A stretch of 58,642 nt of DNA from a virus (Duplodnaviria; Caudoviricetes). The notes beneath the pieces were generated by a model. That model searched no databases. It had not been told where the DNA came from and saw only the letters and a list, made by a program, of their open reading frames with translations. A program made the translations under genes and the position numbers. Shown here one piece after another: positions 871-44,588 of this stretch; position 1 is the first letter of the stretch, and each line of letters begins with the position of its first letter. The DNA lies in the IMG/VR virus record IMGVR_UViG_3300034683_000065, positions 1 through 58,642 of that record. One strand, given 5' to 3'.

Positions 871-2979
871 TTACATACCTACAGGGGCTACTTCAGCTGA
901 AGTTGGACCTTGTGGTTGAGCACTTTGGGATTGCTGTTGCTGAAGAGCAGCAGCTTGTTGTGCCATCGCGTCGACATCTTGCTTCGCAAGCTTAAGGTTG
1001 TTGATCAAATCTTGCGGAGAGACGCCGTGTTCGCGGGCAGCCTCGACCATCTGACTCATCCAAGCGCGCTCTTCCTCAGCAGCCTGTTGCTGCTGCTGTT
1101 GCTGCACTTGCATTTCCTTTTCAGAGTACACCAGACCCTTATCGCCAAGGTCAAGTGCGTCTGCGATGCCACGAATGACGTTAGGACGCTTGACAATGTT
1201 GATGTCAGTCGGGTTATTAGTGATGGACGCGAACTGAATAAGGGTATTTGCGTACACTTCCTTAGCGATCAAGGACGAAGTCCCCTTAGCCACGATAGTG
1301 TAGTCACCCTTAATGCCCGGATCATCATTAAATTGCATATTCCAGTGGTACATTGCAGTAATAAACGGCTTAGTGATGCCATCGTCAAAGTTTTTGACCT
1401 GGTCTTTGATGGTAATGTTTGCACTTCCCATCATCATGGACAGGCCAGAAGCCGTACGACCAGCTCCACCAGCTTGTTCACCCCACATGTAGCGTGGAAT
1501 AGTAGTAACTTCGTCTCCGTACTCCTTGAACATGGCAGCAAGGCGCTCAAATTCGAGCGTGTACGAGGGAAGTTGGAACACTCGGATCGCCGGAGATGCA
1601 GCATCGGGACCAGCCCCTGTGCGAAGCCACGTTTTAAACGGCCGAATGTCCGTTGCGTCGTCGAGATCACTCAGAAGATCAAGGTTTACTTCGATCTGAG
1701 GGCCAGCACTGATGGCAGCGTTGTCGAGCATGGCTCTAAAAGCGCTGTTAGTCAGCTCTTGAACGTCCCGCATGATGGTCGGGATGCCCTCACCAAAGAT
1801 AGAAGTCTCATCTTTGTCGTAGTAGTAGAAAAAGTAAGGCCACTTTATGCCGTCCATGGGCATAACAGAAGCTTTAATCACGTGACAGCCAAGAACCCAC
1901 ACGTTTGCGGCCACTTCAAGGTTGCCTTTAAGCTTGTCTGGTACAGAAATACCAGCCTTTATGAGATCTTCAGCGTCAACGTAACCCCAAAACTCGAACA
2001 CTTCGTACTTCTTAGCGTGCGAATTAGCGCTTGCGTTTGACTGAACAACGTTACCAAGCGACTGAAGCTCGAGTTCGTGGGACTTTTTCTCAAAGTCACC
2101 GTCAGGATTGTCCTTCAGGTACTTCTTAATCTTCTTTCCAGCAAAGTCAGAGCGCTTAGTAAGCTCGGAAAGCTCGTGCTTGTCCATCTTCCTGCGCTGT
2201 ATAAGGTACCTGCAGTCGTCAATCGAAGTTGCTTCCATGTCAGGATAGATATCCCACACAGGAACAGACTCAATAAACGGGGTAACCTGGTCAAAGTGCT
2301 GCAAAATCCACTCACTTTTACCAGACTTACCTGTACTTTTCTTGTACTGCTTATTCTGAACAATGCTAACCAGCGGACCTTTAAGTATACCTGTGCCGTA
2401 AACGTTGCCACTGTGGACAACCTCACGCATTATTTCGCGATACTTAAGTTCAACAAGCTGGTCTTCGATGGTCTTTTCCATCCGCCTTGTCTTCTTGCGA
2501 GCTTCTTCGCCCACAAGCATTTCAAGTTCTTCAGGAGTGATCTGCTGCCCAGTCTCTTGTACGTACATAGCAGCAAGCATTTTCTGCTGCTCGTCGCTAA
2601 AGTCTGGGTACGGGGTAGGTTCGATACCCCAGTTCTTGTCTCCGTTAGCAGGGAACAAGAAGTCACAAAGGCGACTGTCAACAGTCTTTACCTTCGTACG
2701 TGTAATTCGAATGTACGCCTTGGATCTATTAGGATCCATTTTAGAAATCGTATCAGGATCGTACTGACCCCTGTACTGTCTGAGGTCTGTAAGCCAGCGA
2801 TCTTCGATTTCCTTTCGCGCATTCTCACTTTCCTCGAAGCACGACGACACAAACTTAGCGAGATCGTCGCCTTCTTTTTTGTCAGTCTTACCGTCTACGT
2901 TAACTTCGTCGAGAACCTTTTCTATTTCTTTCTGAAGCTTGTCGTCTACAGTAACGACTTCTACTTGAGTGTCTATCAT
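871..2979 (-). CDS. Portal protein
   Basis: 702 aa directly after TerL; podovirus portal-like motifs (FGEGIP..MRDVQ..NSAFRAMLDN, RTASGLSMMMG) and a Gln-rich C-terminal tail. Confidence 0.9.
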   Translation of the reverse strand: MIDTQVEVVTVDDKLQKEIEKVLDEVNVDGKTDKKEGDDLAKFVSSCFEESENARKEIEDRWLTDLRQYRGQYDPDTISKMDPNRSKAYIRITRTKVKTVDSRLCDFLFPANGDKNWGIEPTPYPDFSDEQQKMLAAMYVQETGQQITPEELEMLVGEEARKKTRRMEKTIEDQLVELKYREIMREVVHSGNVYGTGILKGPLVSIVQNKQYKKSTGKSGKSEWILQHFDQVTPFIESVPVWDIYPDMEATSIDDCRYLIQRRKMDKHELSELTKRSDFAGKKIKKYLKDNPDGDFEKKSHELELQSLGNVVQSNASANSHAKKYEVFEFWGYVDAEDLIKAGISVPDKLKGNLEVAANVWVLGCHVIKASVMPMDGIKWPYFFYYYDKDETSIFGEGIPTIMRDVQELTNSAFRAMLDNAAISAGPQIEVNLDLLSDLDDATDIRPFKTWLRTGAGPDAASPAIRVFQLPSYTLEFERLAAMFKEYGDEVTTIPRYMWGEQAGGAGRTASGLSMMMGSANITIKDQVKNFDDGITKPFITAMYHWNMQFNDDPGIKGDYTIVAKGTSSLIAKEVYANTLIQFASITNNPTDINIVKRPNVIRGIADALDLGDKGLVYSEKEMQVQQQQQQQAAEEERAWMSQMVEAAREHGVSPQDLINNLKLAKQDVDAMAQQAAALQQQQSQSAQPQGPTSAEVAPVGM

Positions 2980-2985
2980 AGCGCC

Positions 2986-4410
2986 TTAGTAGCCTCCGAT
3001 GGAGCTTGCTGCTTGATACTTTTTACGGTTGGCAAGTAGCGTTCTTTTTGGTTGTTTGTGCACGTACTCCATCATCGCGTACTGCAGAGCGTCGTGTACG
3101 TGAGAGTACTTATTCTTTGCGGGCTTCTCTTTGTACAGAATCCCGTTAACTGTCTTGGCTTCGTCAAACTTGTACTCGCTCAAGAAACCCTTTCTGAGAG
3201 CAGTACAACTAGGCCCAAGTTTGAATTTATCTCTTAATCTTAGGTAGTGAATGACAGCTTCTTTTCGTTCTGTGAACACGTTCGACTTAGCGAGGCGCAC
3301 AGGCAGACCGTTCTCTTTGAGTACGTCAAAGCCTGCTTTAGCGTCGTTCATAGATCTTTGTACTGTAGCCGGGTCACACACTACTCTGAAATTAGAAACT
3401 ATCCACGGGTACTTCGTAGTGATCAGTGGCCACAGGTGTTCTTGACAGAACTCTTGCAACGAACAATCTTCAGTGGCGATCTCGTCAAACACAAGCACTC
3501 TACCGTCTGGAGCTTGCTGCGTAAATACTGCAGCGGGGGTGAGGCCTTGGTCAACTCCTATAATTACAGGGACCTCTCGAAGAGGAAGAATCGGCTCACT
3601 TACGTAATGTTCGTTGTCGTCGTAGTCTTTGTAAACAGGTCTACCTGTTCTGACTTCACCGTAGTTGTTCATTACGTTAACGTTGATGAAGTCTTCGTCA
3701 GCGCCCATGACGTTGAGTTTGTAGTACTCTTCGTCTAGGTTTTCTACGTTGTCAGCCTCTGGGTTAACTACGTATTTACCATCTGGCAGCTTAATAACTG
3801 CAGACGGTTGCTTGTAAAAAGCGCAGCCCTCAGGCTTTGTTTCTTCAGCTATTTTGTACAACCAGTGGTCTGTGCTGACGGCGTTGTAGTCAAGAATAAT
3901 GAACGGGTTAACACACCCACCGTCCTTTCTAGCAGGATATCGGTTAAAGCGTGTTTTGAGCATTTCGAAAACTCTGTAGCTGACTTCCGAAGCTTCGTTG
4001 ATGTGGCACGACGTTACTTCAAGAGAACGAAGTTTTTCAACAGCTTGGTCGTCGTCTACTGCGATGAACAGAACTTCCATGTCTACGGTAGTGCCATCTT
4101 CCATCGGGTACCGTATACGACCTACAATCGGAGTACTGTAGGTTATCGTGATCTTGTCTTTAAACCAAGAGATCCACGACTTGACAGTGGAAGCTTTAAG
4201 AGATGGGTACGTAGCACGAACCACAAGATGTCTGCTGTGTCGAACCCCGTTGTGGTCAGGCTTCTGACGCATTGCGTTAATAAAGGCGTGAAAGATGCAC
4301 CCAGTACTTTTGCCAGAGCCAACCGGCCCCATAACAAAAATAAACGGGTTGGTCTCTCTGTGCACTTTACTAAACGTGGGTACAACCTTGTAGTTAATGT
4401 CTAGACTCAT
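2986..4410 (-). CDS. terL: Terminase large subunit
   Basis: Walker A GPVGSGKS, Walker B-like HINEASE, RNase H-like nuclease motifs IGVDQGLTPA and HVHDALQY. Confidence 0.95.
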   Translation of the reverse strand: MSLDINYKVVPTFSKVHRETNPFIFVMGPVGSGKSTGCIFHAFINAMRQKPDHNGVRHSRHLVVRATYPSLKASTVKSWISWFKDKITITYSTPIVGRIRYPMEDGTTVDMEVLFIAVDDDQAVEKLRSLEVTSCHINEASEVSYRVFEMLKTRFNRYPARKDGGCVNPFIILDYNAVSTDHWLYKIAEETKPEGCAFYKQPSAVIKLPDGKYVVNPEADNVENLDEEYYKLNVMGADEDFINVNVMNNYGEVRTGRPVYKDYDDNEHYVSEPILPLREVPVIIGVDQGLTPAAVFTQQAPDGRVLVFDEIATEDCSLQEFCQEHLWPLITTKYPWIVSNFRVVCDPATVQRSMNDAKAGFDVLKENGLPVRLAKSNVFTERKEAVIHYLRLRDKFKLGPSCTALRKGFLSEYKFDEAKTVNGILYKEKPAKNKYSHVHDALQYAMMEYVHKQPKRTLLANRKKYQAASSIGGY

Positions 4411-5418: not shown

Positions 5419-5970
5419 GTGGTAAGTGAAGAAAAAGTTAATATTTCTGCGAGTAGGTGTAGAAAAAATTACAACAAGGGTGACAGGGCTAATGATTACC
5501 TTGAGTACTACACGCTTCAAGAACTTCTTAAAGACCTGAAGATTATGTTCCCCAACATCCCGATAAGCGAACTTCGCAGACTTGTGAGAGCTATCTTCTG
5601 GATTTTTACTGAGTGTTTTGCTCAAGGAATGAACGTACGTATTCACAACTTCGGTCGGTTCTTGGTAAAGGATCTTCCTGCGCCCAACAGAGTGTTTGAC
5701 TTCTGGAACGGTGGTGACTTGCCTAATCCTCCGACACGTCGTAAAAGTGTTTCGTTCGAACCAGGCCACAGAATGCGTCACGTTATAAGTCCTACGGACA
5801 GTACTTACATTAGTGACTGCGGAAGGTACAATCACGAGTGGAACAGAAAGGTTAAGGCAATACACGAGCGCATAGGCAATGCTCTGTACCAGGCTCCGTA
5901 CGATAAGTTTGGAAACTACCTTGGTTACACAGATGAATTCGCGGAGTACTTGACAAAAGATTTTATATAG
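5419..5970 (+). CDS. HU/IHF-family DNA-binding protein with N- and C-terminal extensions
   Basis: V.I.NFGRF.V....P.R......G........R..V.F.PG..M pattern of the HU/IHF core; RBS GGAGG upstream. Confidence 0.75.
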   Translation: MVSEEKVNISASRCRKNYNKGDRANDYLEYYTLQELLKDLKIMFPNIPISELRRLVRAIFWIFTECFAQGMNVRIHNFGRFLVKDLPAPNRVFDFWNGGDLPNPPTRRKSVSFEPGHRMRHVISPTDSTYISDCGRYNHEWNRKVKAIHERIGNALYQAPYDKFGNYLGYTDEFAEYLTKDFI

Positions 5971-5990
5971 TTATACCATAGGTACTTAAG

Positions 5991-6233
5991 GTGAGTAAGA
6001 ATAATAAAGTAGTATTTAAATTTAGTATAAATAAAGAAGAAGTTAAAGTAAGAAAACTTAATAATTTAAAACCTACTAAATTCTTTAAAGATAAAAGTAA
6101 GTATAATAGAAAAGAGTTTAAGCTTAATAAAAAGAGCTTAGACTCTTTTTCTTTTTATATATATATATATATACCATCAGTACCTGGGGTTCCTAAGGGA
6201 CCTAAGGTTCTAGGTCTACATCAAGTTAAGTAA
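5991..6233 (+). CDS. Small basic protein with ArfA-like PTK..KDKSKYNRK motif and an internal terminator
   Basis: Lys-rich first ~50 aa; TTGACA-N18-TACCAT at 5950-5979; weak RBS. Confidence 0.45.
   Translation: MSKNNKVVFKFSINKEEVKVRKLNNLKPTKFFKDKSKYNRKEFKLNKKSLDSFSFYIYIYIPSVPGVPKGPKVLGLHQVK
6110..6156 (+). terminator. Intrinsic terminator-like hairpin inside ORF 5991..6233
   Basis: 15-bp stem AAAAGAGTTTAAGCT/AGCTTAGACTCTTTT followed by TCTTTTT. Confidence 0.7.
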
Positions 6234-6787
6234 CTTAGGAATACCTATAAGTAAATACGAAGTAAGTACTTATAGATACTTCTAAAGTAAATAACCATCC
6301 TTACCTGGTTCTCTTAAGACTACTCGAAGTACCTAAGGGACACGAATAGTACCTAAGCCCTCTAGAATTCTAAAAATATACGCGCGATGTAGGTGACATC
6401 ACAGGGGGTAGGGGCCACTCTGTGTCCCACGGTACCCCTCGAACCACCCCCCCCTATGGGAAAATTCGGAGCTGTGTGGTCTGGATAGAGCCACTCCAGA
6501 TAGCCTCAATTCCGATTAGATTAATCTAGTACGCTTCAATCCTAGTATCCTTCAATCCGAGAACGCTCCAATAGGATACAAGTTAATCACGATTGCCCTA
6601 CTCCGCTTCCGTTTCCGCTTCCGGTTCGCTCGCTTGCCTTGTGTATTATGCGCTATCCGTTATGCCTTCCTACCTTTCTTCCTTCCTGCCTAACTACCTG
6701 ATATCACTGGATATCTTTCTTTTAGTAATCCTTCATGTTTCCTTTGTAACATGCTGTAATCCTTGAGCTAATTTAAGTTTTTCGTTT

Positions 6788-6845
6788 TAAGGCACGATAT
6801 GCCACAAGATGACCTGCGGTATGCCTTGGTGCTTTACGTGCCCTA
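6788..6845. repeat. Dyad element copy 1 (TAAGGCACG-N40-CGTGCCCTA)
   Basis: Same arms, 40-nt spacing and central RCCTRNRGTAT as the copies at 18757 and 37278. Confidence 0.75.
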
Positions 6846-7240
6846 CAGGTCAATGTCGTGCGTTCTATGGGGTCTTGTGTGCTCGCTCAACATGTCATTC
6901 CTTTTTGGTAGGATATGGTTTTTCTCTTGTGCTACATTGGTACTTTGCTACTGCGACAACGTGATGTTGCTTTGTGTTACTTTGCTACTACAGTCGCACT
7001 ACAGTCGCGTTGCATTGCAAGTTGCATTGGCGCTAATTCACGTTGCTTTGCGTTGCGTTGTTTTTGCGTTTCTTGTGTTTGCTTGGCATGATACTTGCCT
7101 TTACGCGCGCATGTGCGCACCACATATGAACGTAGGTCTTGTGACGTGACGTGTTGAATTACTTCACTTTTCGCGTTTGGTGCTTGTGACGTGTTGATTT
7201 TACTTGATAAAAATCTTTTTCGGTTTTCTTGAAAAATTGT

Positions 7241-7268
7241 TTGACATCAACCTGCAATCTGGTATTGT
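7241..7268 (+). promoter_or_regulatory. Early sigma70 promoter
   Basis: TTGACA-N16-TATTGT with TG extension and an AT-rich upstream region. Confidence 0.7.
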
Positions 7269-7325
7269 TGCCTTGAACGTAGCATAACGATACGTTCCAC
7301 ATACTACCTACTTGAGAGGTTCGCT

Positions 7326-7829
7326 ATGTCCGTGGATACTGCACGTGCGCTGCGTGACGCCGAAGGTCGCAATGCTACCAGATTGCTTGGCAACGTCGAA
7401 CCTATCGACCTGCCTGTTGGCTGTAATGCCGGAACCATGCGCGAAGTTCCACCTATGGTGCTCGAAGTCTTGAAGCGAGACGTACGGGCGCAACTGGATG
7501 TGCTCAAGGCGTCTGGAGTGTCATGTCGTGAACGTAACAGGCTGTCAAAAAGCTTGTTACGTCTTGCCGTCGAACGATGGCATGAAGGTCGCAAGCGTGA
7601 CGCTTACAAGTTGCGCGCCAAGAAAGCGGGTGAAACCCGCAGCATCAAAGCGGCGAACAGACCGCGCGCAAAAAGCGAACATGGCACCGAAGCACCGCTT
7701 GAAGCGTTCGCTTCAGCTAGGCATAAACCTTGCCCGAAGAAAGCAAAGGGTTTGATAGGTTTGGCGGTCAAAGCGAGCGAAAAAAGTCAAGCACCGCAGG
7801 TAGTTGTCAGAAAAGCGAAAAAAGATTAA
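7326..7829 (+). CDS. First early protein, basic, unknown function
   Basis: 167 aa, RBS GAGGT, Lys/Arg-rich C-terminal half. Confidence 0.7.
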   Translation: MSVDTARALRDAEGRNATRLLGNVEPIDLPVGCNAGTMREVPPMVLEVLKRDVRAQLDVLKASGVSCRERNRLSKSLLRLAVERWHEGRKRDAYKLRAKKAGETRSIKAANRPRAKSEHGTEAPLEAFASARHKPCPKKAKGLIGLAVKASEKSQAPQVVVRKAKKD

Positions 7830-7836
7830 AAATCAC

Positions 7837-7866
7837 TTGACCGCTTGCCGCGAATCACGCTATAAA
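7837..7866 (+). promoter_or_regulatory. sigma70 promoter driving the putative large ncRNA
   Basis: TTGACC-N18-TATAAA. Confidence 0.65.
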
Positions 7867-7869
7867 GGA

Positions 7870-8545
7870 TTTGTGGCAAGCAACGGAAGACCGACATAAG
7901 GTCGGTACTCCGCCACAAGTGACAAGAGGCCGTCCGTTTCCGGATGGACGCACGAACACCGCGCCAGCATTGGGCGTACCGACGTAGCATGACGTCACGT
8001 CACGCAAAAGCACATAACGCTTTGCAGTATGCCCTTGCGCCATGACGCACCAAACATTTTAACCGGATTGCTCACGTTCCGTCGTGAGAATTAGTTATCC
8101 CCGCGCAAGCCACAAGGCACACAAAGCCGTCGCTTGCTACCTCAAAGACGCCGATACGTTCACGGACGTTCGGCACGACGTGAGGTGAAGCAACGCAACG
8201 TAAAGCGCAAGACGACGTGACAACGCCGACCGCCCTTTTCTTTGTGTGACAGTGTATCGCTTGTCAATGACGTTCTTCACGGAGAACGGAGACAACGCGA
8301 CACCGAATCCAACTTGTGGAGACCAGCGCAAGGCAGGAAGTTAGGTAAAAAGCCCAGTACCGACGCCATGAAGACCGACCGCCGATTGTTTCACGCGAAA
8401 CATTCAACGCGCAAGCCCAGTAATGGTTAATGCCAGTCGGGAAGACCTGATAAAAGCTAACTCCTGCTACTAGGGGCAACTATGGCATACGAAAAATGCT
8501 ATGTTGTGCCGACGGGGTAAAAATCCGGCTCACTTGTCACAAATT
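7870..8545 (+). ncRNA. Putative large structured ncRNA 1 (unclassified)
   Basis: No credible ORF; nested long-range helices 7919-7926/8533-8540, 8063-8069/8522-8528 and 8095-8103/8513-8520; many local hairpins; AGUA/GAA loop-E-like pairs; flanked by a promoter and a terminator. Confidence 0.7.
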
Positions 8546-8561
8546 GCTTATTTCACAGAAG

Positions 8562-8609
8562 AGGCTTCCCTACCGAAAGCTAATAGCTAGTACGTAGGGA
8601 AGCCTTTTT
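8562..8609 (+). terminator. Terminator or processing hairpin closing ncRNA 1
   Basis: AGGCTTCCCTAC/GTAGGGAAGCCT stem followed by a T-run. Confidence 0.7.
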
Positions 8610-8667
8610 ACATTGAAATTGGCAATGGAAGTTTCACATGAAACAATCAGCAAATGAGGTTAATACC

Positions 8668-9234
8668 ATGTCGAAGTTTACGCGCAACACTCTCATCGAA
8701 GTCGGCAACATGGACTCGGCAATCATCGACTACAGGAATAGCTTTCTTGACGTGAAGACTGACGGCCATGTCATTCTGTTGTCATGCCTGTATCATGGAA
8801 TGCCAGCCAATCTTGAGACGGGAGCAGACGGCAAGTCCTTGAAGAACCCCGGCAACGGTTCCTTCCTTAACAAGTTTCTCAAGGTCGTCGGCGAGTCGCA
8901 CCCCGCGTATGTTCCGCGCCTCAAGTCGTTCATCAAGGAAGTCGCGCCTTTCGAGGTTGACGGCGAGAAGGTCAGGTTCAAAGAGAAGACCTTCAGGGAC
9001 ATGGGCGGCGACCGCGACGTTATCTTCGGTCGCCTGAACGCCATCGCAGGGACGTGGTACGACCGGACGAAGGCCGAGAAGAAGGAAAAGGGACGCCCTG
9101 ACGTTGCCAAGAAGCTGGCAAGCCTCGTCAAGATTATCAAGGGCCTTGAGAACCTGTCCGAGCAGGAACAGGCCATCCTCACCGGCCTTCTCAAGATTGC
9201 CGAGATTGCCAAGGTCGAGCTGCCCAAGGAATAG
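8668..9234 (+). CDS. Early hypothetical protein
   Basis: RBS GAGGT before ATG 8668; strong C/G third-position codon bias. Confidence 0.8.
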   Translation: MSKFTRNTLIEVGNMDSAIIDYRNSFLDVKTDGHVILLSCLYHGMPANLETGADGKSLKNPGNGSFLNKFLKVVGESHPAYVPRLKSFIKEVAPFEVDGEKVRFKEKTFRDMGGDRDVIFGRLNAIAGTWYDRTKAEKKEKGRPDVAKKLASLVKIIKGLENLSEQEQAILTGLLKIAEIAKVELPKE

Positions 9235-14730: not shown

Positions 14731-15435
14731 GTGTTGTCACAGGTGGGGCGATAGCTTCTGCTGTCGTCCTACCCATTGGCAACGCGTGCTCACTTGCTGT
14801 AAAGCACACGTGCTGTGTGGAATTACTATTAGCCAGGCAGGGAAACCTGTACACGTCTGCACCAAGAGGGTCTGGTCAAGTGGCTACCAGCTTGGACAGT
14901 TTCGCTAAAGCTAAGCGGGGCTGCCGCCAAGGTAACAGCACTATAAACTCAACAGGTGTAGAGGTAGGGGAAGGCACCCAGGTGACGAAGCACAAGCGCC
15001 GCCCAGCAATAGCTTAGCCGTGTTGACCGTTCGTTATTGGCGTTGGTTGACAGCTCATCGAAAACACAAAGGCTTAGTGTCGGTGAGGGGAAAGGTGAAC
15101 TCCTGTGTCCCTAAGACCGTAGGTGTGTGCGAGGAAGACTTGACACACGTAAGAACTTGATCCGCGATGCCTTTAACTGCTGCCAACCACAAGGCGAAGA
15201 GAGCTTGGTCGTTAGTTCAGAGCCAGCACAATTGGGTTAGTACTGCAAAGTATCTTCAGGAACTACGTGTTCCCTTGCACTGCGGTGCTCGGCGCACAGC
15301 TACGTTGGGACTACAATGTACCTAGTGCTCGAAGATTTTGAGGAGGGTTGCCCTCGCTTTGCCAAAGGCCAGTAGCTGGCCAGGAATCTGGGCTCGACTT
15401 GCAGGCCGCTGCACAAGTTCTCACAAGTTGTCTCT
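14731..15435 (+). ncRNA. Putative large structured ncRNA 2 (unclassified)
   Basis: About 700 nt without a credible ORF; G-U-containing hairpin 14731-14785, CAGG-GAAA-CCTG, long-range AGAACTTG(15152)/CAAGTTCT(15414), many stems. Confidence 0.6.
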
Positions 15436-38345: not shown

Positions 38346-41300
38346 TTAGTACCTCACACCAGCAGACTCAGCTGCTTTGATCATGCGCTTCATGTGCATC
38401 TCCTTTTGCTGTTGCAACATCCGCTTACGGACGTTGTACTCTTCTGAGTAGATGCTGTGCTTGATCGCCAAGTCTGTCTCGGCCTTACGTATCTTAGTCA
38501 AGGCAGTCTCAACTCTCTTGAGATCTTGTTCTGCTTTAAGTGCAGACATAGACCTAGCCCGTATCTCTGCGAGCTCCTTGCCTCTGACTCCTTCCTTGTA
38601 CGCCAGATTATATTCCCCAGCAGAAGCCATGACTTCTTTCTTCACTTTACTGTAGAGCTGCTGCGTGTCAGACGCACCAACCTCACCAATAAAGCGCTTA
38701 AGAACAGGAGACTTAGTGTACTCGAACTCTCGTCCGGGAGTGAGCGCCATGTCGATAGCCTTGTAGGAATCCCACACAACTCGACCAACACCACCAGTGT
38801 ACGAAAGCAACGTGTGCTCTATAGTCTCTGGAGAAATATCTACGTATCCAGACTTAGTCTTCGACCCGCCGGTAACAGAGTTAAGAGCCTCAGCAAACGC
38901 TCTGAGCACAGGGTCAGCTGTACCCCAGAACTTCTGGCTGTCTGGCTTGTCCTTTGCACCTTCAGGTACTATGGGCTGCCCAGCAAAGTTACGGTTAGTA
39001 GCTATCTGGAACATAGGCCTGAAGATCGTAGGCACAAGTGCAGTCCAACCCTCGTCAGCCCCACCAACAAAACTGAAGGCGTCAAAGAAAGTCTTGACAG
39101 AACTGACAGCAGCCTCAACAGGTTTCTTACGACCGTTGATGACTTGGTCAAATGCGTCGCTTGTTGCCCAGAACATGTGGTAACCAAGAGCCATGGGGAT
39201 CTTGATGTAGCCACCGTCAGAAAACGGAGACGGAAGGATCAAGTTCTGAGACCTAACGTAGTCAGGTATCTTGTCGTACTTGTTAACTCCGTCATCGTCG
39301 TCACCCATGACAGCTCGGCACAGTGCTGCGAGAGCCATCTGCCCTGCCATGAATCCACCCAAGTACTTAGCGACACGCTTGACGTTCTGTTCACGAGTAG
39401 AAGTAGGGCGAACAATGTTCTGCATCATTCGAATGTTACCAGCAATAGACGCGCTGCTAAACATGTAGAGTGCGTTCATCACAGGAGCCCAGGCCCCCTT
39501 CTTCGTGAAGTTAACCGTGAGGTTAAGTGCAACGTTACCAGCTCTGTCTTGTGCTACTTCTGGAGACATGCCGTGTTTACGGTAAACACTGTACATATTC
39601 TTGAAGACGCTAAGGCGAGTCATGTTCTCAAGGATGTCGCTGAGCGTGTGCAAGTAAGTACCAGCTGTGATTACAAGGTCGCGTGCTGCGTGAGGCTGTC
39701 GAGCCATCTTGCGCAGACGCGTGTACGTGTCTTCAAAGTTAGCGAGGCCGTACATAGAAGTCTCAGCTCCGCTGTCCTTGTACAACTTAATAGCGTTGTA
39801 CCACCCAGCCTCTTCTTCGTTACGAGGGGCAAGTCCTTTACCTTCCCGCCACAAAGCCTTAAAGGCTGGCACAAGATCCTTAGCAAGCTGCGGTCTGATC
39901 TTCTTGATATCCGCTGCGAACTCTTGCTTGTGCTCTTCAATCACGCTGCCGAGGTTAAGCAGCGCAGTCTGTACGTCTCGAATGGGGTTACCCAAGATAA
40001 ACGGAAGAGACAGCGTAGTGCTTGCCTTAGCCATCATCTGCGTAAACACACCCATCTGCCTGATAGCAGGGCCAGCGATGAGCAGGTTCTCATCTTTAAG
40101 GCCTCGAGCAAGTTCTTTGTCAAAGATAGCAACACGAACACGTGAACCGTCTTCGTCGATTATCGTGACAACTGGCACGTCAGTACCAGAGAACTCGTGC
40201 TTAGCTTTCCTGAATACAAGTTCACCTTCTCCAGTGCTGGTGACTTTGTACTTAGGCTTTTCAGAGTCTATAACCTTCCACAGATCTGGTGCTGGGTTGT
40301 CCTTGATGAGGTTCAGCAAGGATCTGCCAACTACAGTACGCTCACCCATACGGATAGCGTCTTCGTACTGAACGATCGTGTGAATGATCGGATTCTGCGG
40401 AAGAGTGTCGCGACCCTTAGCGCGCTTAGACGGAACCCACTCACCGACGCTGATGCCAGCGCGAGCGTGCTCTGCTGCGTACCCAGGGTCTATCTGCTTA
40501 ATAGCTTCGTCCCAATTCTTGAGCGGAACGTAGTACTTGTACGTCTGCTCCCACTGATCAATAACATCCTTGTCAAACAAGTTGTACTGACGCAGCAGTT
40601 CAAGGCGAGCCGTGTTCAAGTACTTCAGCACACGAACAACTCCCTCCATGTTGGGGTCGCCTTCGTACTTACGAATAGTTTCGTGAGCTTCGGCGTCTGT
40701 CCAACCAGATGGTGCTTCCATGTACTTAAGCATGTCTTGCGTAATGTTCTTGTGAGGCATATTCTTGATCCGCTCTCTGAGCACAGCGTTACGCTCAAGC
40801 GCGTGAAGCGCAGTAGCGTAGTCAGCGGCAGCAGCAAGAGCTTTCTCAAAAGAACCAAACTTAGGAACAAGTTTGTTAACAAAGTACATCAACGATCCCT
40901 TAGTGTTGGGGTCGATGAACTCCTTCTGGATTTCTCCAATCCGACTAGATACTTTGTTACTCATCATCTCGTGCTTACGATACGCGTTGGTGTGCGGAGT
41001 GATCTTTCCACCTTGCTTAATCAAAGCACGCTGCACAACTTGCAGCCTTCTCAACTTATCCCCAAACTTTTCAAGCAGCCAGTCGACAGAGCTGTGACGA
41101 CGAACCTTGCCGTCAGGAGTCACCACCTGCCCAGCTTTGATGACGTCTTCAACAACCTTGCCAACCTTGTCTATGAGACTAAGTCGGTTGTCTTCTCGAA
41201 TCTGCTCAGCCTCAAGGAACGTGCGCGGGCCTGTGGTAGCACTCTCTGGAAGTGAGTACAGAAGAGCATTTACTTTAGACTTGTACTCAGCACTATTCTT

Positions 41301-44300
41301 ATCTTGTGCTAGGTGCAAAGCGCTGGCTTGGAGTATAGTGTAGATGTCGTCTTCAGTAAGCTTACGTACACCAAGCTTATTAAGAACTTGTTTGATAAAG
41401 TTCTTGACCTTTGCGAGCACAGACTTCTCGTCTGCGTCTAGCAGCTGCTTAACTTTCTTTCGTTCCGCAACTCTAGCCACGAACTCTTCGGCCTGGCTCA
41501 GAGGATCAAGAGACGAGTAGTACTCGTTCTTTCCTATGTGGCTGGCCCACGCTTTAGAGTCTTTAAACGAGTCGTACACAAGCTTAAGAAAATGTTCTCT
41601 CTGTCTGTCAGTAAACAGCGAGCGAAGTCCGTAGTGGACAACACCTTCGTGCACAACAGCCCGTACGGCCTGCTCTTTCGAAGTTATGTTCGGAGCGAAC
41701 AGTAGAATTTTTCCGTCGACAAATGCGGCTACAGCGCCCTTCTGGTACCGTGCGAGAATGTCCTGGTTCGAAATAACTTCTACTTTGTCAGCAAGTACAG
41801 GGAGTTGGCTAAGCGTGTTTTTAATCCACGCTGTTACTTTCTTTGCAGAGTCGACAGCCTCTTTTGTTGTGCCGACTTGCTCACGTGCCTGAGCTTGTGT
41901 CTGAGCTTTGACTACGTCTACTTCTCTTGCAAGATTACTTGTGTGAACTGTACCGGTCTCAGGCACAGGCATAGTACCTTGCTGGACAGTGCCAGTAGCT
42001 TGCTCTTGTGTGGGCACCAAAGACCTGCGGTGCAGCTGGTACCCTGGAACGAATTCACCTTCCGGCATTCGTCCGAGCGCAGCAGCTTCTTCAAATTGTT
42101 GACGTTCAGCCTGATCCCACCACGCAGCAAGCTCAGCTTCTTGCGCTTGCTTTTCTTGCTCTCGTGCGTTAGCCAAGTCACGAGCAGCCTCGTACTGAGT
42201 TTGGTGGAACACCATGTTACGTTCTACTGGCTGAGGTACAACAGCAGGTGCTGCCGGTACAGCCTCAGCTACGTCGGTAACCTTGGGAGGAAACACCAAC
42301 ATGTCTCTGTTGTACATACTGGCACCGAACGCTTCTTCTTGTGCTCTGGTGTTGGCTTCGTCGAACTGCTGAGCTTTGGCTCTTGCTGCGGCTATGTCGT
42401 TAGCGATCTTGTCTCTAACTTTGTTAGCTTCTTGCACAGCCTCTTGCTCGTACAGACGTGCGTACTCGGCAGCTTCTGCCTTGTTCTCTGCCTGTGCACC
42501 AAGGGTAGCCCAGTATTCTTTACCACCACCGAAGAACTGTTTCAGTCTTTCTTGACGTTCTCTGCGCTTGTTGTTCTGCTCTTCTTGCCTGATGCTCTCA
42601 CGAGTGTGTGCTGCACGCAGCTCGTTAGCTGCTGCGGCAATGTGCGCCTGTTCTTGCAGCTTGTTCGGCAGCGCGGTGTCGGGTGTTAGATTAGCAAGGA
42701 GATCGTCGCCAGTCTTTTCTGCTCTCTTTCGAAGTTCCTGAAGACTAACTTCGGGCGCTCCTCTGAGGATGGCATCTATGTCAGATGCTGCTGAGCCTAT
42801 GCCGTACAGAGAGTTAAGAGCCTTGTCCAGCTTCCACTGTTCGCCAACCTTGTTGTTAGCGATAAGCCTAACAGCCTTGTCACCCTGCTCAAAGATATTG
42901 TCAACTCTGTTCTGCTCAGCAGTAAGTGCGTTCTTGTAAGTAGAAAGTCTGTCTGCAAGAATACTTACTGTTGCGCGGCTCAGCGTCGGGTCAGACATCT
43001 TGGCTTCGAGCTCTGTGATAGCTGCCCTAAGCTTGCCTTGAATCTGAGTAGAGATGTCAGACTGCCTATTAACAAACGTCTGTACATCCTTAGCCTGGTC
43101 TACAAGTCTCTTATATACTTCAGGAGACTGAGGTGGAGCAGTTGCTTCAGATTCTGCACGCTTCTCTCTGGCCTTCTGTACTTTCTTTTCTGCTGTGGTA
43201 GTAGCTTTCTCTACTTGCTTCTTAGCCAAAGCTTGCGCATGCTCAAGATTCTTCTGTGCCTTTGCAAGCTGACCAGTGACTTGTGCGAGTGCATCCTTGG
43301 CCTGCCCACGAACCTGTGGATCCGACCCAGGATTTCCAAGAACAGTAAGCAGATGGGCACGCTGCCTAGAAAGCTGCTGCACCAGTCCAGCGTACTTCTG
43401 TTGTGTCTCTGCAAGCTTAGAACCAATGCTGTCAACAGTCATAGAGACAGCAGTCTTACCTATCTCAGTAGCAGCTTCTACATTACCAGCAGCCACAGCT
43501 GCTTCTTTGATAATGTCTTCTGCGTTGAACTGAGGTTTGGTAGACAACGACGGATCGTTGCTTTCTGCCGTGTTCTTTTCTGCTGTCTTAAGACGATCTA
43601 CTACTGTGGACACTGGGGCAAAGCCAAGACCACCAATAGCACCAGCAGCTGCGCTGTTGATGATATCCCAGTAGTCATCTGGAGTAATCCAAGCTCGGCT
43701 GTCCTGAATGTTTGCGTTGGCTGAAGCTACGGCTTCCTGAATACCTTCAGTAAAACCTTCCTGCAGCATAACCTTGGGCAGGTCTCGTACGAGTGCGCTC
43801 CTGAAAGATCTTTCAACTTCTCGCGCGACAGGAACGCCTGTGACCTTCCGAAGGATTGAACCTTCAGCACCCATGACAACGTCAACCATTGCGCTAGCAA
43901 GACCAAACGCAGCGTCTTGGATCGGCCTGGTATTTTCAATGCCGTGGGTTTCCACATCTCGTGCGTACATCCCACCAGCTTCTTGAGACCACATGGCACC
44001 AGTAACACCAAGTGTTGCACCAAGCCTAGACGCAACTGCCTTAGTCGCCGTCTCACGCGCAAGCTCAGCACTAAGGCCTTGCTTGATGAGGGACTGCTCT
44101 GCTGCTGCAATCGCAGACTTAGCTCCGTTGGCTACTACTGTACCAAGCACACGCTTGCCTACAAAACTACCAACTCCACCAGTACCAAGAGACAGCATAG
44201 CCTGTGGAAGCAAAGACCCAAGTGTGTGAGCTCCCCACTGAGCGGCAGTCTCAAAAGACTCGATATCACGTATGTCGCCTACCTTACCAGCATAAGGTGA

Positions 44301-44588
44301 GGCTTCTTCCATGTTTCTAAGATACCCCTCGTAACCAAAGTCGCGAAGAGAATCAATTCCTGCTATGTCACCAGCAAGTCCAACAGACCCATAGCCAAGG
44401 GCTTGCATCTGCTGCTTACCGTACTCCCACCCCTTGCCAAACTCTGACATACCAGCAGCAGGATCAACAGGTGCTGGTGTAGGAATAGCAGAGTACGCAT
44501 CTTGAATGTTGTACGAAGATCCGCCCCCGAATGGCCTTACTGGCCCACCGAAGGGATTAATCATAGTACCAGCGCTATCCGGCGTCAT
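38346..44588 (-). CDS. Large internal virion/ejection protein with zincin-like motif and C-terminal LPD38-like domain
   Basis: 2080 aa; HEGVVHYGLR; GDDDDGVNKYDKIPDY..YIKIP; Gly/Ala hydrophobic N-region. Confidence 0.8.
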   Translation of the reverse strand: MTPDSAGTMINPFGGPVRPFGGGSSYNIQDAYSAIPTPAPVDPAAGMSEFGKGWEYGKQQMQALGYGSVGLAGDIAGIDSLRDFGYEGYLRNMEEASPYAGKVGDIRDIESFETAAQWGAHTLGSLLPQAMLSLGTGGVGSFVGKRVLGTVVANGAKSAIAAAEQSLIKQGLSAELARETATKAVASRLGATLGVTGAMWSQEAGGMYARDVETHGIENTRPIQDAAFGLASAMVDVVMGAEGSILRKVTGVPVAREVERSFRSALVRDLPKVMLQEGFTEGIQEAVASANANIQDSRAWITPDDYWDIINSAAAGAIGGLGFAPVSTVVDRLKTAEKNTAESNDPSLSTKPQFNAEDIIKEAAVAAGNVEAATEIGKTAVSMTVDSIGSKLAETQQKYAGLVQQLSRQRAHLLTVLGNPGSDPQVRGQAKDALAQVTGQLAKAQKNLEHAQALAKKQVEKATTTAEKKVQKAREKRAESEATAPPQSPEVYKRLVDQAKDVQTFVNRQSDISTQIQGKLRAAITELEAKMSDPTLSRATVSILADRLSTYKNALTAEQNRVDNIFEQGDKAVRLIANNKVGEQWKLDKALNSLYGIGSAASDIDAILRGAPEVSLQELRKRAEKTGDDLLANLTPDTALPNKLQEQAHIAAAANELRAAHTRESIRQEEQNNKRRERQERLKQFFGGGKEYWATLGAQAENKAEAAEYARLYEQEAVQEANKVRDKIANDIAAARAKAQQFDEANTRAQEEAFGASMYNRDMLVFPPKVTDVAEAVPAAPAVVPQPVERNMVFHQTQYEAARDLANAREQEKQAQEAELAAWWDQAERQQFEEAAALGRMPEGEFVPGYQLHRRSLVPTQEQATGTVQQGTMPVPETGTVHTSNLAREVDVVKAQTQAQAREQVGTTKEAVDSAKKVTAWIKNTLSQLPVLADKVEVISNQDILARYQKGAVAAFVDGKILLFAPNITSKEQAVRAVVHEGVVHYGLRSLFTDRQREHFLKLVYDSFKDSKAWASHIGKNEYYSSLDPLSQAEEFVARVAERKKVKQLLDADEKSVLAKVKNFIKQVLNKLGVRKLTEDDIYTILQASALHLAQDKNSAEYKSKVNALLYSLPESATTGPRTFLEAEQIREDNRLSLIDKVGKVVEDVIKAGQVVTPDGKVRRHSSVDWLLEKFGDKLRRLQVVQRALIKQGGKITPHTNAYRKHEMMSNKVSSRIGEIQKEFIDPNTKGSLMYFVNKLVPKFGSFEKALAAAADYATALHALERNAVLRERIKNMPHKNITQDMLKYMEAPSGWTDAEAHETIRKYEGDPNMEGVVRVLKYLNTARLELLRQYNLFDKDVIDQWEQTYKYYVPLKNWDEAIKQIDPGYAAEHARAGISVGEWVPSKRAKGRDTLPQNPIIHTIVQYEDAIRMGERTVVGRSLLNLIKDNPAPDLWKVIDSEKPKYKVTSTGEGELVFRKAKHEFSGTDVPVVTIIDEDGSRVRVAIFDKELARGLKDENLLIAGPAIRQMGVFTQMMAKASTTLSLPFILGNPIRDVQTALLNLGSVIEEHKQEFAADIKKIRPQLAKDLVPAFKALWREGKGLAPRNEEEAGWYNAIKLYKDSGAETSMYGLANFEDTYTRLRKMARQPHAARDLVITAGTYLHTLSDILENMTRLSVFKNMYSVYRKHGMSPEVAQDRAGNVALNLTVNFTKKGAWAPVMNALYMFSSASIAGNIRMMQNIVRPTSTREQNVKRVAKYLGGFMAGQMALAALCRAVMGDDDDGVNKYDKIPDYVRSQNLILPSPFSDGGYIKIPMALGYHMFWATSDAFDQVINGRKKPVEAAVSSVKTFFDAFSFVGGADEGWTALVPTIFRPMFQIATNRNFAGQPIVPEGAKDKPDSQKFWGTADPVLRAFAEALNSVTGGSKTKSGYVDISPETIEHTLLSYTGGVGRVVWDSYKAIDMALTPGREFEYTKSPVLKRFIGEVGASDTQQLYSKVKKEVMASAGEYNLAYKEGVRGKELAEIRARSMSALKAEQDLKRVETALTKIRKAETDLAIKHSIYSEEYNVRKRMLQQQKEMHMKRMIKAAESAGVRY

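Follow-up and report, generated by a model that had tools for sequence, protein, structure and literature searches.

A structured RNA locus near the head of the rightward gene block

We analyzed a 58,642-base stretch of DNA from an uncultured phage, called the window below, which is the whole of IMG/VR virus record IMGVR_UViG_3300034683_000065 (Caudoviricetes), carries direct terminal repeats and is rated complete. Positions 7873-8609 of its + strand probably form the gene of a large, compactly folded non-coding RNA, which is the subject of this work. The locus sits between the first rightward open reading frame (ORF; 7326-7829, 167 aa) and the second (ATG at 8668, 188 aa), ~0.5 kb to the right of a large ORF-poor control region (5866-7325). 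Packaging genes, among them an SU10-type portal and a Terminase_3 large subunit (TerL), lie on the minus strand at 871-4410. All neighboring genes from 7326 to ~37,700 are on the + strand. A long rightward block encodes a DnaB-like helicase, a family A DNA polymerase, an exonuclease, an ATP-dependent ligase and a DHH phosphoesterase, and a leftward structural block encodes an internal virion protein and a 2079-aa LPD38-domain protein. Judged by position only, the genes adjacent to the RNA would be early genes. A previous interpretation of the same DNA from its letters (the sequence-only reading) had placed a non-coding, highly structured RNA of about 740 nt at this locus. Our analysis bears this out for ~735 nt, with compensatory changes in a related phage. 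The sole full-length homologue obtained is L003, a 6144-bp IMG/VR contig found via the upstream protein. The features of the locus, with their counterparts in L003, are as follows.

7326..7829, + strand: upstream ORF167, 167 aa with a very basic C-terminal half; it adjoins the RNA in L003 also.
7837..7866, + strand: promoter-like TTGACC-N18-TATAAA, read from the sequence.
7873..7880, + strand: 5' strand of P1, GUGGCAAG; 8 pairs with 8533-8540 close the molecule, and none varies (helix 1).
7884..7912, + strand: hairpin P2; 4 of 10 pairs are compensatory (ACCGAC/GUCGGU becomes CACAUC/GAUGUG in L003).
7929..7951, + strand: hairpin P3 with a UCCG loop; 2 of 9 pairs are compensatory (helix 3).
7967..8038, + strand: three-way junction P4, a stem with two hairpins of the same shape in both phages despite largely different sequence; helices 5 and 6 have 1 compensatory pair each.
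8063..8069, + strand: 5' strand of P5, CCGGAUU, pairing with 8522-8528 over a span of ~460 nt; 1 of 4 pairs in helix 8 is compensatory (8063/8525, C-G to A-U in L003).
8099..8106, + strand: P6, CCCCG (with 8513-8517) and adjoining GCGC (with 8326-8329); helices 10 and 11, 4 pairs each, invariant.
8110..8319, + strand: domain P7, closed by CCACAAG 8110-8116/CUUGUGG 8313-8319 and enclosing P8 and P9; 3 of 7 pairs are compensatory (helix 12; CCAUGAC/GUCAUGG in L003).
8118..8248, + strand: domain P8, closed by CACACAAAG/CUUUGUGUG (8118-8126/8240-8248), with a long arm and a second arm at 8202-8238; the closing helix in L003 is CACACAAG/CUUGUGUG, one base lost per strand, and long and short arm occur in both phages. 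In the P8a tip hairpin (8156-8169, UUCACGG loop, helix 13) 3 of 7 pairs are compensatory.
8257..8300, + strand: hairpin P9, the most conserved block, with a UUCACGG loop at its tip; helices 16 and 17 contain 1 compensatory pair, and in two further pairs C-G has become U-G, which is kept on the + strand only.
8332..8468, + strand: domain P10 (D3) with closing helix 8332-8344/8457-8468, inner helix CCGAC/GUCGG (8360-8364/8436-8440) and hairpin 8387-8402; closing helix 18 has 1 compensatory pair of 11 and 1 wobble, and inner helix 20 (P10a) has 1 compensatory pair of 5.
8474..8510, + strand: hairpin P11; 3 of 12 pairs are compensatory (helix 24).
8513..8540, + strand: 3' strands of P6, P5 and P1 (CGGGG, AAUCCGG and CUUGUCAC) in the consensus fold.
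8558..8609, + strand: intrinsic-terminator-like hairpin with an inner AGCU mini-hairpin, ending in U5; 16 pairs, in the fold and as consensus helix 25.
8619..8667, + strand: conserved spacer before ATG 8668, with a promoter-like TTGGCA-N17-AACAAT (placed at 8619-8647 by the promoter scan) and a GUUUCAC..GAAAC hairpin.

The region does not encode a protein

The region 7873-8609 is not protein-coding. In line with the sequence-only reading, which had seen no credible ORF here, the longest internal frames are 62 aa on the + strand and 71 aa on the minus strand. ORFs of at least 40 aa in the L003 segment are not co-linear with the window frames, and similar peptide stretches sit in different frames. 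At the nucleotide level the RNA segment is 68.7% identical to L003, compared with 79.0% for the upstream and 63.3% for the downstream ORF. The 210 mismatches in the RNA are distributed evenly over the three phases (67/66/77), whereas those in the upstream (28/14/64) and downstream (50/40/83) ORFs are not. Among 13 indels in the RNA (2, 3, 6, 1, 1, 5, 3, 1, 3, 4, 1, 1 and 2 nt) 9 are frame-breaking; the two ORFs have one indel each, of 9 and 3 nt.

The secondary structure is shared with a related phage

We derived a consensus structure with RNAalifold from a MAFFT alignment of the window and L003, the two full-length sequences (n = 2). A multi-domain secondary structure is conserved between these phages, which are ~69% identical in this region: a closing helix P1, the nested helices and domains P5, P6, P7, P8 and P10, and about 12 hairpins. 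The consensus fold contains 162 pairs, 25 of which have changed on both sides and 10 on one side, with none broken, and compensatory changes occur in local helices as well as in long-range ones. Its energy is -173.15 kcal/mol, compared with -97.4±7.4 in 40 column shuffles that preserve the pattern of identical, mismatched and gapped columns (lowest -110.1). The same shuffles yield 13.9±3.6 compensatory pairs (highest 22) as opposed to the 25 observed. When the 3' partners are slid by 1-3 columns, 0-2 compensatory pairs are left and 36-42% of the cells pair, and 0 of 500 partner shuffles reach the observed values; these two controls are lenient, as the structure was derived from the same two sequences. 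Where MAFFT failed to align the two sequences, separate folding of the segments yields matching shapes, namely a three-way junction (S1), a two-armed element (S4) and two hairpins (S5 and S8).

Six long-range complementarities had been quoted in the sequence-only reading, and all of them are found in place (7919/8533, 8063/8522, 8095/8513, 8110/8313, 8118/8240 and 8333/8457). Their fate in L003 differs. Compensatory changes occur in 8110/8313 (3 pairs), 8333/8457 and 8063/8522, and 8118/8240 is maintained by a matched 1-nt deletion, while 8095/8513 is invariant. The outermost proposal, 7919/8533, is not kept in L003, where it has acquired two mismatches and a bulge. The consensus offers the invariant 7873-7880/8533-8540 pairing (P1) as an alternative, which the comparison neither supports nor contradicts.

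Three segments could pair with the 3' strand of P1, CUUGUCAC (8533-8540). One of them is a GUGACAA tract that lies in the loop of the short P8 arm and that in L003 reaches 10 bases of complementarity to CUUGUCAC; this pairing could, on complementarity, form a pseudoknot or an alternative state. The P1 5' strand has further possible partners as well: 7847-7854 and, in the window only, a different register with 8544-8557.

Repeated elements in the RNA

Several elements recur within the molecule. The repeats that had been noticed before are present, AAGCCCAGTA at 8350 and 8413 and GAAGACC at 7886, 8370 and 8441, and exact 10-nt internal repeats are located at 7886/8370, 8102/8408 and 8350/8413. 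Domain P10 contains two AAGCCCAGUA and two GAAGACC modules. Two AGUA/GAA modules, for which a loop-E geometry had been suggested, lie opposite one another, separated by CCGAC/GUCGG and GCCAU/AUGGU. The former helix carries one compensatory pair; the latter gains an A-U but also a C-A in L003, and a local UGGU/GCCA hairpin is a possible alternative in its place. Of the two strand-crossing C/G positions beside the modules (n = 2), one keeps a wobble and the other breaks its pair in L003. The same C-to-T change is found at 8355 and 8418, within both AAGCCCAGTA copies (AAGCCC), in L003 and in metagenomic strains of three runs, and the two copies appear to change together. D3 as a whole is 93% identical to L003. 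A covariance model of this domain (R1) matches only itself in 317,479 bases, with no second copy in the window.

The same UUCACG loop caps three conserved hairpins, the tips of P8a, P9 and P10b, in both phages. The heptamer GCGCAAG is enriched in the window (23 copies, 12.46±3.86 expected); 5 of the 23 are located within 8034-8415, 4 of them on the + strand, and the + strand copies sit at junctions. Self-complementary GCGC, UUAA and AGCU tracts are likewise found in junctions and loops.

Three assignments of these elements to known motifs were considered and rejected. For an 11-nt GNRA receptor, UAUGG is present but not conserved, and no CCUAAG was seen on reading. The UUCACG loops cannot be read as T-loops, as position 58 would be C and not A. 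Finally, a CsrB/RsmZ-type sponge for CsrA is not suggested by the few A(N)GGA sites seen by eye in hairpin loops, about 11 GGA being expected by chance in 740 nt; the lone Rsm row in our Rfam searches (RsmV, 15.8 bits with a cut-off of 100) lies in the upstream ORF.

Putative ends of the RNA

The promoter proposed earlier is present as quoted, with TTGACC at 7837-7842, an 18-nt spacer and TATAAA at 7861-7866. L003 keeps the -10 block CGCTATAAAGGATT and a spacer block CTTGCCGCGAA; its -35 element is TTGCTA with N17. The conserved 28-nt promoter block occurs once in the window, and a search for a phage-specific promoter repeat found its 11-mer core (up to 2 mismatches) 11 times in the window, with 11.4 expected. 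The spacer block CUUGCCGC (7847-7854) is complementary to the P1 strand GUGGCAAG (7873-7880), and in transcripts entering from upstream it would compete with P1.

At the 3' end we confirmed the proposed hairpin and T-run, but the stem, proposed at 12 bp, has 16 pairs (8558-8573 with 8594-8609), with an 11-bp G+C-rich core followed by TTTTT. The hairpin is omitted by the terminator scan because its loop exceeds 8 nt. Hairpin and U5 are conserved in L003, where a U-A to G-U change in helix 25 allows for pairing on the + strand only. The terminator and the following spacer are 88.2% identical to L003. The GUUUCAC..GAAACA hairpin of domain D3 (8386-8402) recurs after the terminator (8629-8645), where it overlaps the promoter-like site of the next gene, and the L003 counterpart of this second copy forms a perfect DNA palindrome of 14 bp, GTTTCACGTGAAAC. 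By its sequence, the recurrent hairpin could be an operator or a shared protein-binding hairpin.

Comparison with known RNA families

Searches with cmscan of the 4227 families in Rfam 15 gave no match at gathering score in the whole window, and the same holds for L003 and for the related contigs L016, L018 and L021 introduced below. A relaxed search of the RNA (E ≤ 10) yielded 3-4 weak rows, the best with 20 bits and a cut-off of 49, which are terminator-like hairpins or small nucleolar RNA noise. The covariance models of GOLLD (RF01998) and ROOL (RF03087) gave no row at E ≤ 10 for the window RNA or L003. The sequence-only reading had seen no signatures of transfer-messenger RNA (tmRNA), RNase P or group I and II introns, and we concur: there are no Rfam rows for them, and ARAGORN finds no tmRNA. 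The Intron_gpI and Intron_gpII models gave no rows at E ≤ 10, and the flanking ORFs are complete and mutually unrelated. Neither 6S nor signal recognition particle RNA was matched in Rfam, and no self-cleaving ribozyme family (hammerhead, twister, hepatitis delta virus-like and others) is among the weak rows at E ≤ 10. Full-text searches of the literature, which was not searched by sequence, found no paper on a similar RNA.

Large, elaborately folded bacterial and phage RNA families are few, GOLLD, ROOL and OLE being among them, and their functions are poorly understood. The window RNA resembles GOLLD and ROOL in that it is ~600-800 nt in size, elaborately folded, phage-encoded, of unknown role and recognized by covariation. 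It differs from them by its place near the head of a rightward gene block and by its narrow distribution. One report describes GOLLD and ROOL as large phage-encoded non-coding RNAs of unknown function, often located near tRNA islands, and finds by cryo-electron microscopy that GOLLD, ROOL and OLE build unprecedented RNA-only assemblies (PMC12286853). Adjacency to tRNA genes is frequent in GOLLD but not obligatory, whereas the window phage has no tRNA genes. As their one established structural property, GOLLD and ROOL form homo-oligomeric cages. A second comparison is provided by vibriophage ICP1, for which a study reports a long non-coding RNA of ~800 nt between gp139 and gp140 that its authors compare with GOLLD and ROOL (PMC7567579). 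The two cases share an ORF-less stretch of ~0.8-1 kb, a lytic phage without tRNAs and an unknown role; the ICP1 RNA is defined by its abundance in RNA sequencing and lies beside a lysis cluster, whereas the window RNA is defined by conserved structure and lies next to the early or replication block.

Taken together, the window RNA represents a real and new family of large, structured RNAs in phages. It is comparable in kind to GOLLD and ROOL, and in setting to the ICP1 RNA, without belonging to any of them. Of the earlier description as a new or highly diverged giant phage RNA, the novelty stands, as the RNA matches no Rfam 15 family and has a conserved structure, while the likeness to GOLLD and ROOL is one of kind only.

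A proposed function and its rivals

We consider it probable, by a modest measure, that 7873-8609 (+) encodes a discrete non-coding RNA of ~735 nt with a compact fold, whose family is absent from Rfam. Its transcription would proceed rightwards, starting at the sigma-70-like promoter (7837-7866) or reading through from an upstream promoter at 7241, and would end at the hairpin and U5, at 8609. Since P1 joins the 5' end with the stretch that immediately precedes the terminator, we infer a self-contained particle rather than an mRNA leader. Such a structural RNA may act in trans, in the early or middle phase, by presenting identical elements several times on its surface: the three UUCACG-capped hairpins, the four + strand GCGCAAG junction motifs and the two AGUA/GAA modules. 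These elements might bind several copies of one protein, for which the basic neighbor ORF167 would be the obvious candidate; alternatively, they might contact further copies of the RNA, as in GOLLD and ROOL. With an unrelated fold of ~735 nt, structural studies would gain a further family. In contrast to GOLLD and ROOL, the window RNA is not tied to tRNA islands and has a defined place after a divergent control region and ahead of the replication genes.

Several observations weigh against this reading. The minimum free energy of 7870-8612 on the + strand is -269.4 kcal/mol, compared with -217.75±7.5 in 20 dinucleotide shuffles (z -6.9), but this advantage does not discriminate the region within its own genome: among 17 segments of 743 nt with 15 shuffles each, the RNA included, its z of -5.95 is the lowest, yet 3 of the 16 others, all coding (starts 24800, 32500 and 19600), reach -5.68, -5.73 and -4.61. 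With coding segments nearly as low, single-sequence folding energy does not single out the region; it is the comparison with L003 that goes beyond chance. There are only two full-length sequences, so that each compensatory pair is a single event and no statistic of the R-scape type applies. RNAalifold moreover picks pairs that are possible in both sequences, which inflates the counts, the shuffles still giving 13.9. P1 and P6, which define the global closure, never vary. Among the 23 strain substitutions listed for the RNA, 9 fall on unpaired positions, 4 preserve a pair and 10 would disrupt one in the absence of a matching change in the partner; on their own they decide neither the structure nor the strand. 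The promoter-like site at 7837-7866 is omitted by the sigma-70 scan, since its -10 hexamer ends in A and not T, and there is no terminator between the RNA and the upstream ORF, which weakens the case for an own promoter. As CUUGCCGC is complementary to GUGGCAAG, the apparent conservation of the promoter could reflect RNA structure in a longer read-through transcript. Finally, the minus strand folds equally well (200 consensus pairs, 30 compensatory, -173.55 kcal/mol; single-sequence z -8.6), and a strand-symmetric count beside helices of Watson-Crick pairs only gives 20 G-U and 27 A-C, near the expectation from composition.

The foremost rival is a cis-acting leader that governs read-through of its own terminator, by HK022 put-like antitermination or as an attenuator switch, and that has no role in trans. 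HK022 putL and putR are promoter-proximal structured phage RNAs ahead of terminators, and the window RNA likewise is promoter-proximal, structured and located directly upstream of a strong terminator and the next ORFs. The 5' segment 7873-7880 has mutually exclusive partners (8533-8540 or 7847-7854), an arrangement that a switch needs. Indeed, the minimum free energy fold of the window pairs 7872-7883 with 8544-8557 while 7919-7926 takes 8533-8540. The sister phages described below also put a long structured RNA and a terminator before an ORF with a ribosome-binding site. Against a leader, the put RNAs have ~70 nt and two stem-loops, whereas the window RNA, with ~735 nt, nested domains and more than 20 helices, is about 10 times the size of such antiterminator RNAs. 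In addition, the alternative 5' register gains two A-C mismatches in L003, and the promoter-like site in the post-terminator spacer means that the downstream genes need not rely on read-through. We regard a leader as unlikely.

A little less likely still is a reading in which the long-range helices are incidental and the region consists of independent structured modules in a row, or of a precursor that is processed into several smaller RNAs. Most covariation does fall in the local hairpins P2, P3, P8a tip, P9 and P11, the outermost helices P1 and P6 are invariant, and P5 rests on one compensatory pair. Yet P7, which spans ~200 nt, has 3 compensatory pairs, P8 and P10, which span ~130 nt each, are kept by a matched deletion and compensatory changes, respectively, and no model of a self-cleaving ribozyme matches at E ≤ 10.

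As both strands fold alike, base pairs do not settle which of them is transcribed, and the assignment to the + strand rests on context. It is very likely that the + strand is the functional one, because the T-run follows the hairpin on this strand, because all genes from 7326 to ~37,700 are on it and because the wobble changes in the terminator, in P9 and in the P10 closing helix pair on this strand only. There are also 211 A and 141 U on the + strand, and with Watson-Crick pairing the surplus A must be unpaired; A-rich unpaired stretches are usual for structured RNAs. A minus-strand transcript as the functional RNA is improbable. It would have more consensus pairs at equal energy and the lower single-sequence z, and among the 11 transition variants listed at paired sites 7 would be wobble-tolerated on the minus strand only, compared with 4 on the plus strand only. 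The minus strand, however, is G+U-rich and gains pairs by composition (shuffles reach -250 kcal/mol, compared with -218 on the plus strand). Downstream there is neither a leftward promoter nor a leftward gene. A leftward RNA would have the hairpin and T-run at its start and U-rich loops, and A-C mismatches would replace the new wobble pairs of the terminator, P9 and the P10 closing helix.

We consider it highly improbable that the locus acts at the DNA level, as a replication origin or as a site of packaging or recombination, or that it is a protein gene that has diverged or been overlooked: it does lie ~0.5 kb beyond the control region 5866-7325, but compensatory changes across 130-460 nt fit a single-stranded transcript and not duplex DNA, the interior (GC 0.46-0.57) contains neither iterons nor AT-rich blocks, and flat mismatch phases, frame-breaking indels and the lack of a shared ORF speak against a protein gene.

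Homologues and occurrence

The known distribution of the RNA is narrow, comprising one phage lineage in wastewater, bioreactor and subsurface metagenomes. A blastn search in distant mode of 50,697 phage records (INPHARED) gave no match, and a search for related loci with the downstream protein found none. Protein-profile scans (12-sequence alignment) of Joint Genome Institute metagenome contigs and IMG/VR, and exact-pattern scans of IMG/VR with two conserved blocks, returned only L003. A 21-mer match in GTDB (L026) was rejected as chance, as it lies in G+C-rich, coding-like DNA of a Deltaproteobacteria metagenome-assembled genome without further similarity. Close relatives of the flanking proteins number 11 for the downstream and 9 for the upstream protein (ten including itself), mostly from ENA and Logan contigs.

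In the Logan index, 20 of the 21 public runs listed, from 10 studies of wastewater, bioreactors and the subsurface, hold part of the RNA stretch, with which these runs had themselves been selected; one is probably the source sample. Contigs of four of these runs were compared with the window and revealed many strain variants. A 1955-nt contig of run X13 follows 7882-8608 with 46 differences and 12 gaps, and over 8608-8998 it is beyond the 80% cut-off. Run X20, an RNA library in which DNA may be present, contributes three short contigs on 8430-8658. The flanking genes are not covered by any contig of X20, nor is 8506-8706 by any of X3, but such holes in contig cover prove nothing.

A second structured RNA in sister phages

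We compared the locus with related phages. TerL retrieved 18 further IMG/VR contigs at ~61-72% identity. These sister phages share with the window phage TerL (~72%), the portal (~63%) and a small protein upstream of TerL (~54%), and they have neither the window RNA nor either flanking ORF. At the corresponding place, the 7 loci scanned with enough flank upstream of TerL contain an ORF-free zone of ~1.8-2.3 kb. Here, TTGACA-type promoters and a segment of 630-835 nt are found, with a long hairpin and T-run directly before an ORF with a ribosome-binding site. We term this segment RNA-B; it lies upstream of the packaging genes in each case.

L012:1990-2734, minus strand: RNA-B.
L013:5721-6350, minus strand: RNA-B.
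L015:2226-3060, minus strand: RNA-B.
L016:5658-6407, minus strand: RNA-B.
L017:1779-2546, minus strand: RNA-B.
L018:5757-6497, minus strand: RNA-B.
L021:5590-6389, minus strand: RNA-B.

The RNA-B consensus has 196 pairs with 94.6% of the cells pairing, and 71 pairs are compensatory, compared with 6-15 for slid partners and 38.1±4.0 in shuffles. No similarity between RNA-B and the window RNA was detected by blastn, by nhmmer in both directions or with covariance model R1. The two are alike in size (630-835 nt for RNA-B), in the TTGACA-type promoter in front, in the terminator hairpin before an ORF and in their location in an ORF-free zone upstream of packaging genes. They differ in that the predicted architecture of RNA-B has more consecutive than nested domains, and in their flanking ORFs, which are unrelated. 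Two related phage lineages thus have, at comparable places, structured RNAs that are similar in size but unrelated in sequence; these may be diverged homologues or may have come to the same slot independently. The presence of a different RNA of like size in a sister lineage makes the purpose of giant phage RNAs a testable comparison.

We tentatively propose, while holding the full version to be doubtful, that the window RNA and RNA-B are two versions of one device in a podophage-like lineage with SU10-type portals. This device would be a self-contained RNA particle of ~750 nt, among the first rightward (early) products, that, by means of its repeated identical loops and its self-complementary junction motifs, assembles with itself or with a small basic phage protein into a higher-order RNA or ribonucleoprotein body for host take-over or counter-defence. 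If true, this would define a new functional class of giant phage RNAs by genomic slot, tractable via two swappable folds.

At ~6450-6660 of L016 (minus strand), a conserved non-coding unit of ~200 nt can be aligned between the sister phages and may represent another small RNA. It is preceded by a second promoter of the same type (CTTGACAAGG...TAGAGT...TTTCAAC), which lies ~215 nt upstream of that of RNA-B.

Neighboring genes and other regions of the genome

ORF167 shares 85% protein identity with its L003 counterpart. Its AlphaFold model is of low confidence (predicted local distance difference test score 60.6); in it, residues 43-100 form a helical hairpin and the tail is disordered. Neither flanking protein belongs to a Pfam or PHROG family; in the ESM Atlas the downstream protein matches unnamed phage clusters only, and the upstream protein matches nothing. 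ARAGORN detected no tRNA or tmRNA genes in the 58,642 bases.

The control region 5866-7325 is a 1.46-kb ORF-poor stretch that separates the leftward packaging genes from the rightward block. Its AT-rich part has a GC of 0.25 near 5950-6250, with a (TA)n run and repeated TACCTAAGG-like words, and near 6850-7150 it is strongly T-rich, with an AT skew down to -0.43. A 116-aa frame at 6799-7149 looks like a by-product of the T-rich composition. A search for antisense targets of the RNA elsewhere in the genome found none that is significant; the best are 7045-7060 (16 nt, one mismatch) and 7141-7152 (12 nt), each with an E of 2.1, and both fall within this control region.

A second ORF-free tract is located at 14731-15337. 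A 743-nt segment over it folds with a z of -2.9, and it has no match with covariance model R1 (domain D3) or the RNA-B profile. In the leftward structural block, the LPD38 domain of the 2079-aa protein (38346-44588, minus strand) comprises residues 1768-1961. This protein aligns with the C-terminal regions of PHROGs whose members, of unknown function, are 2800-3900 aa long, and it is probably a giant ejected virion protein.

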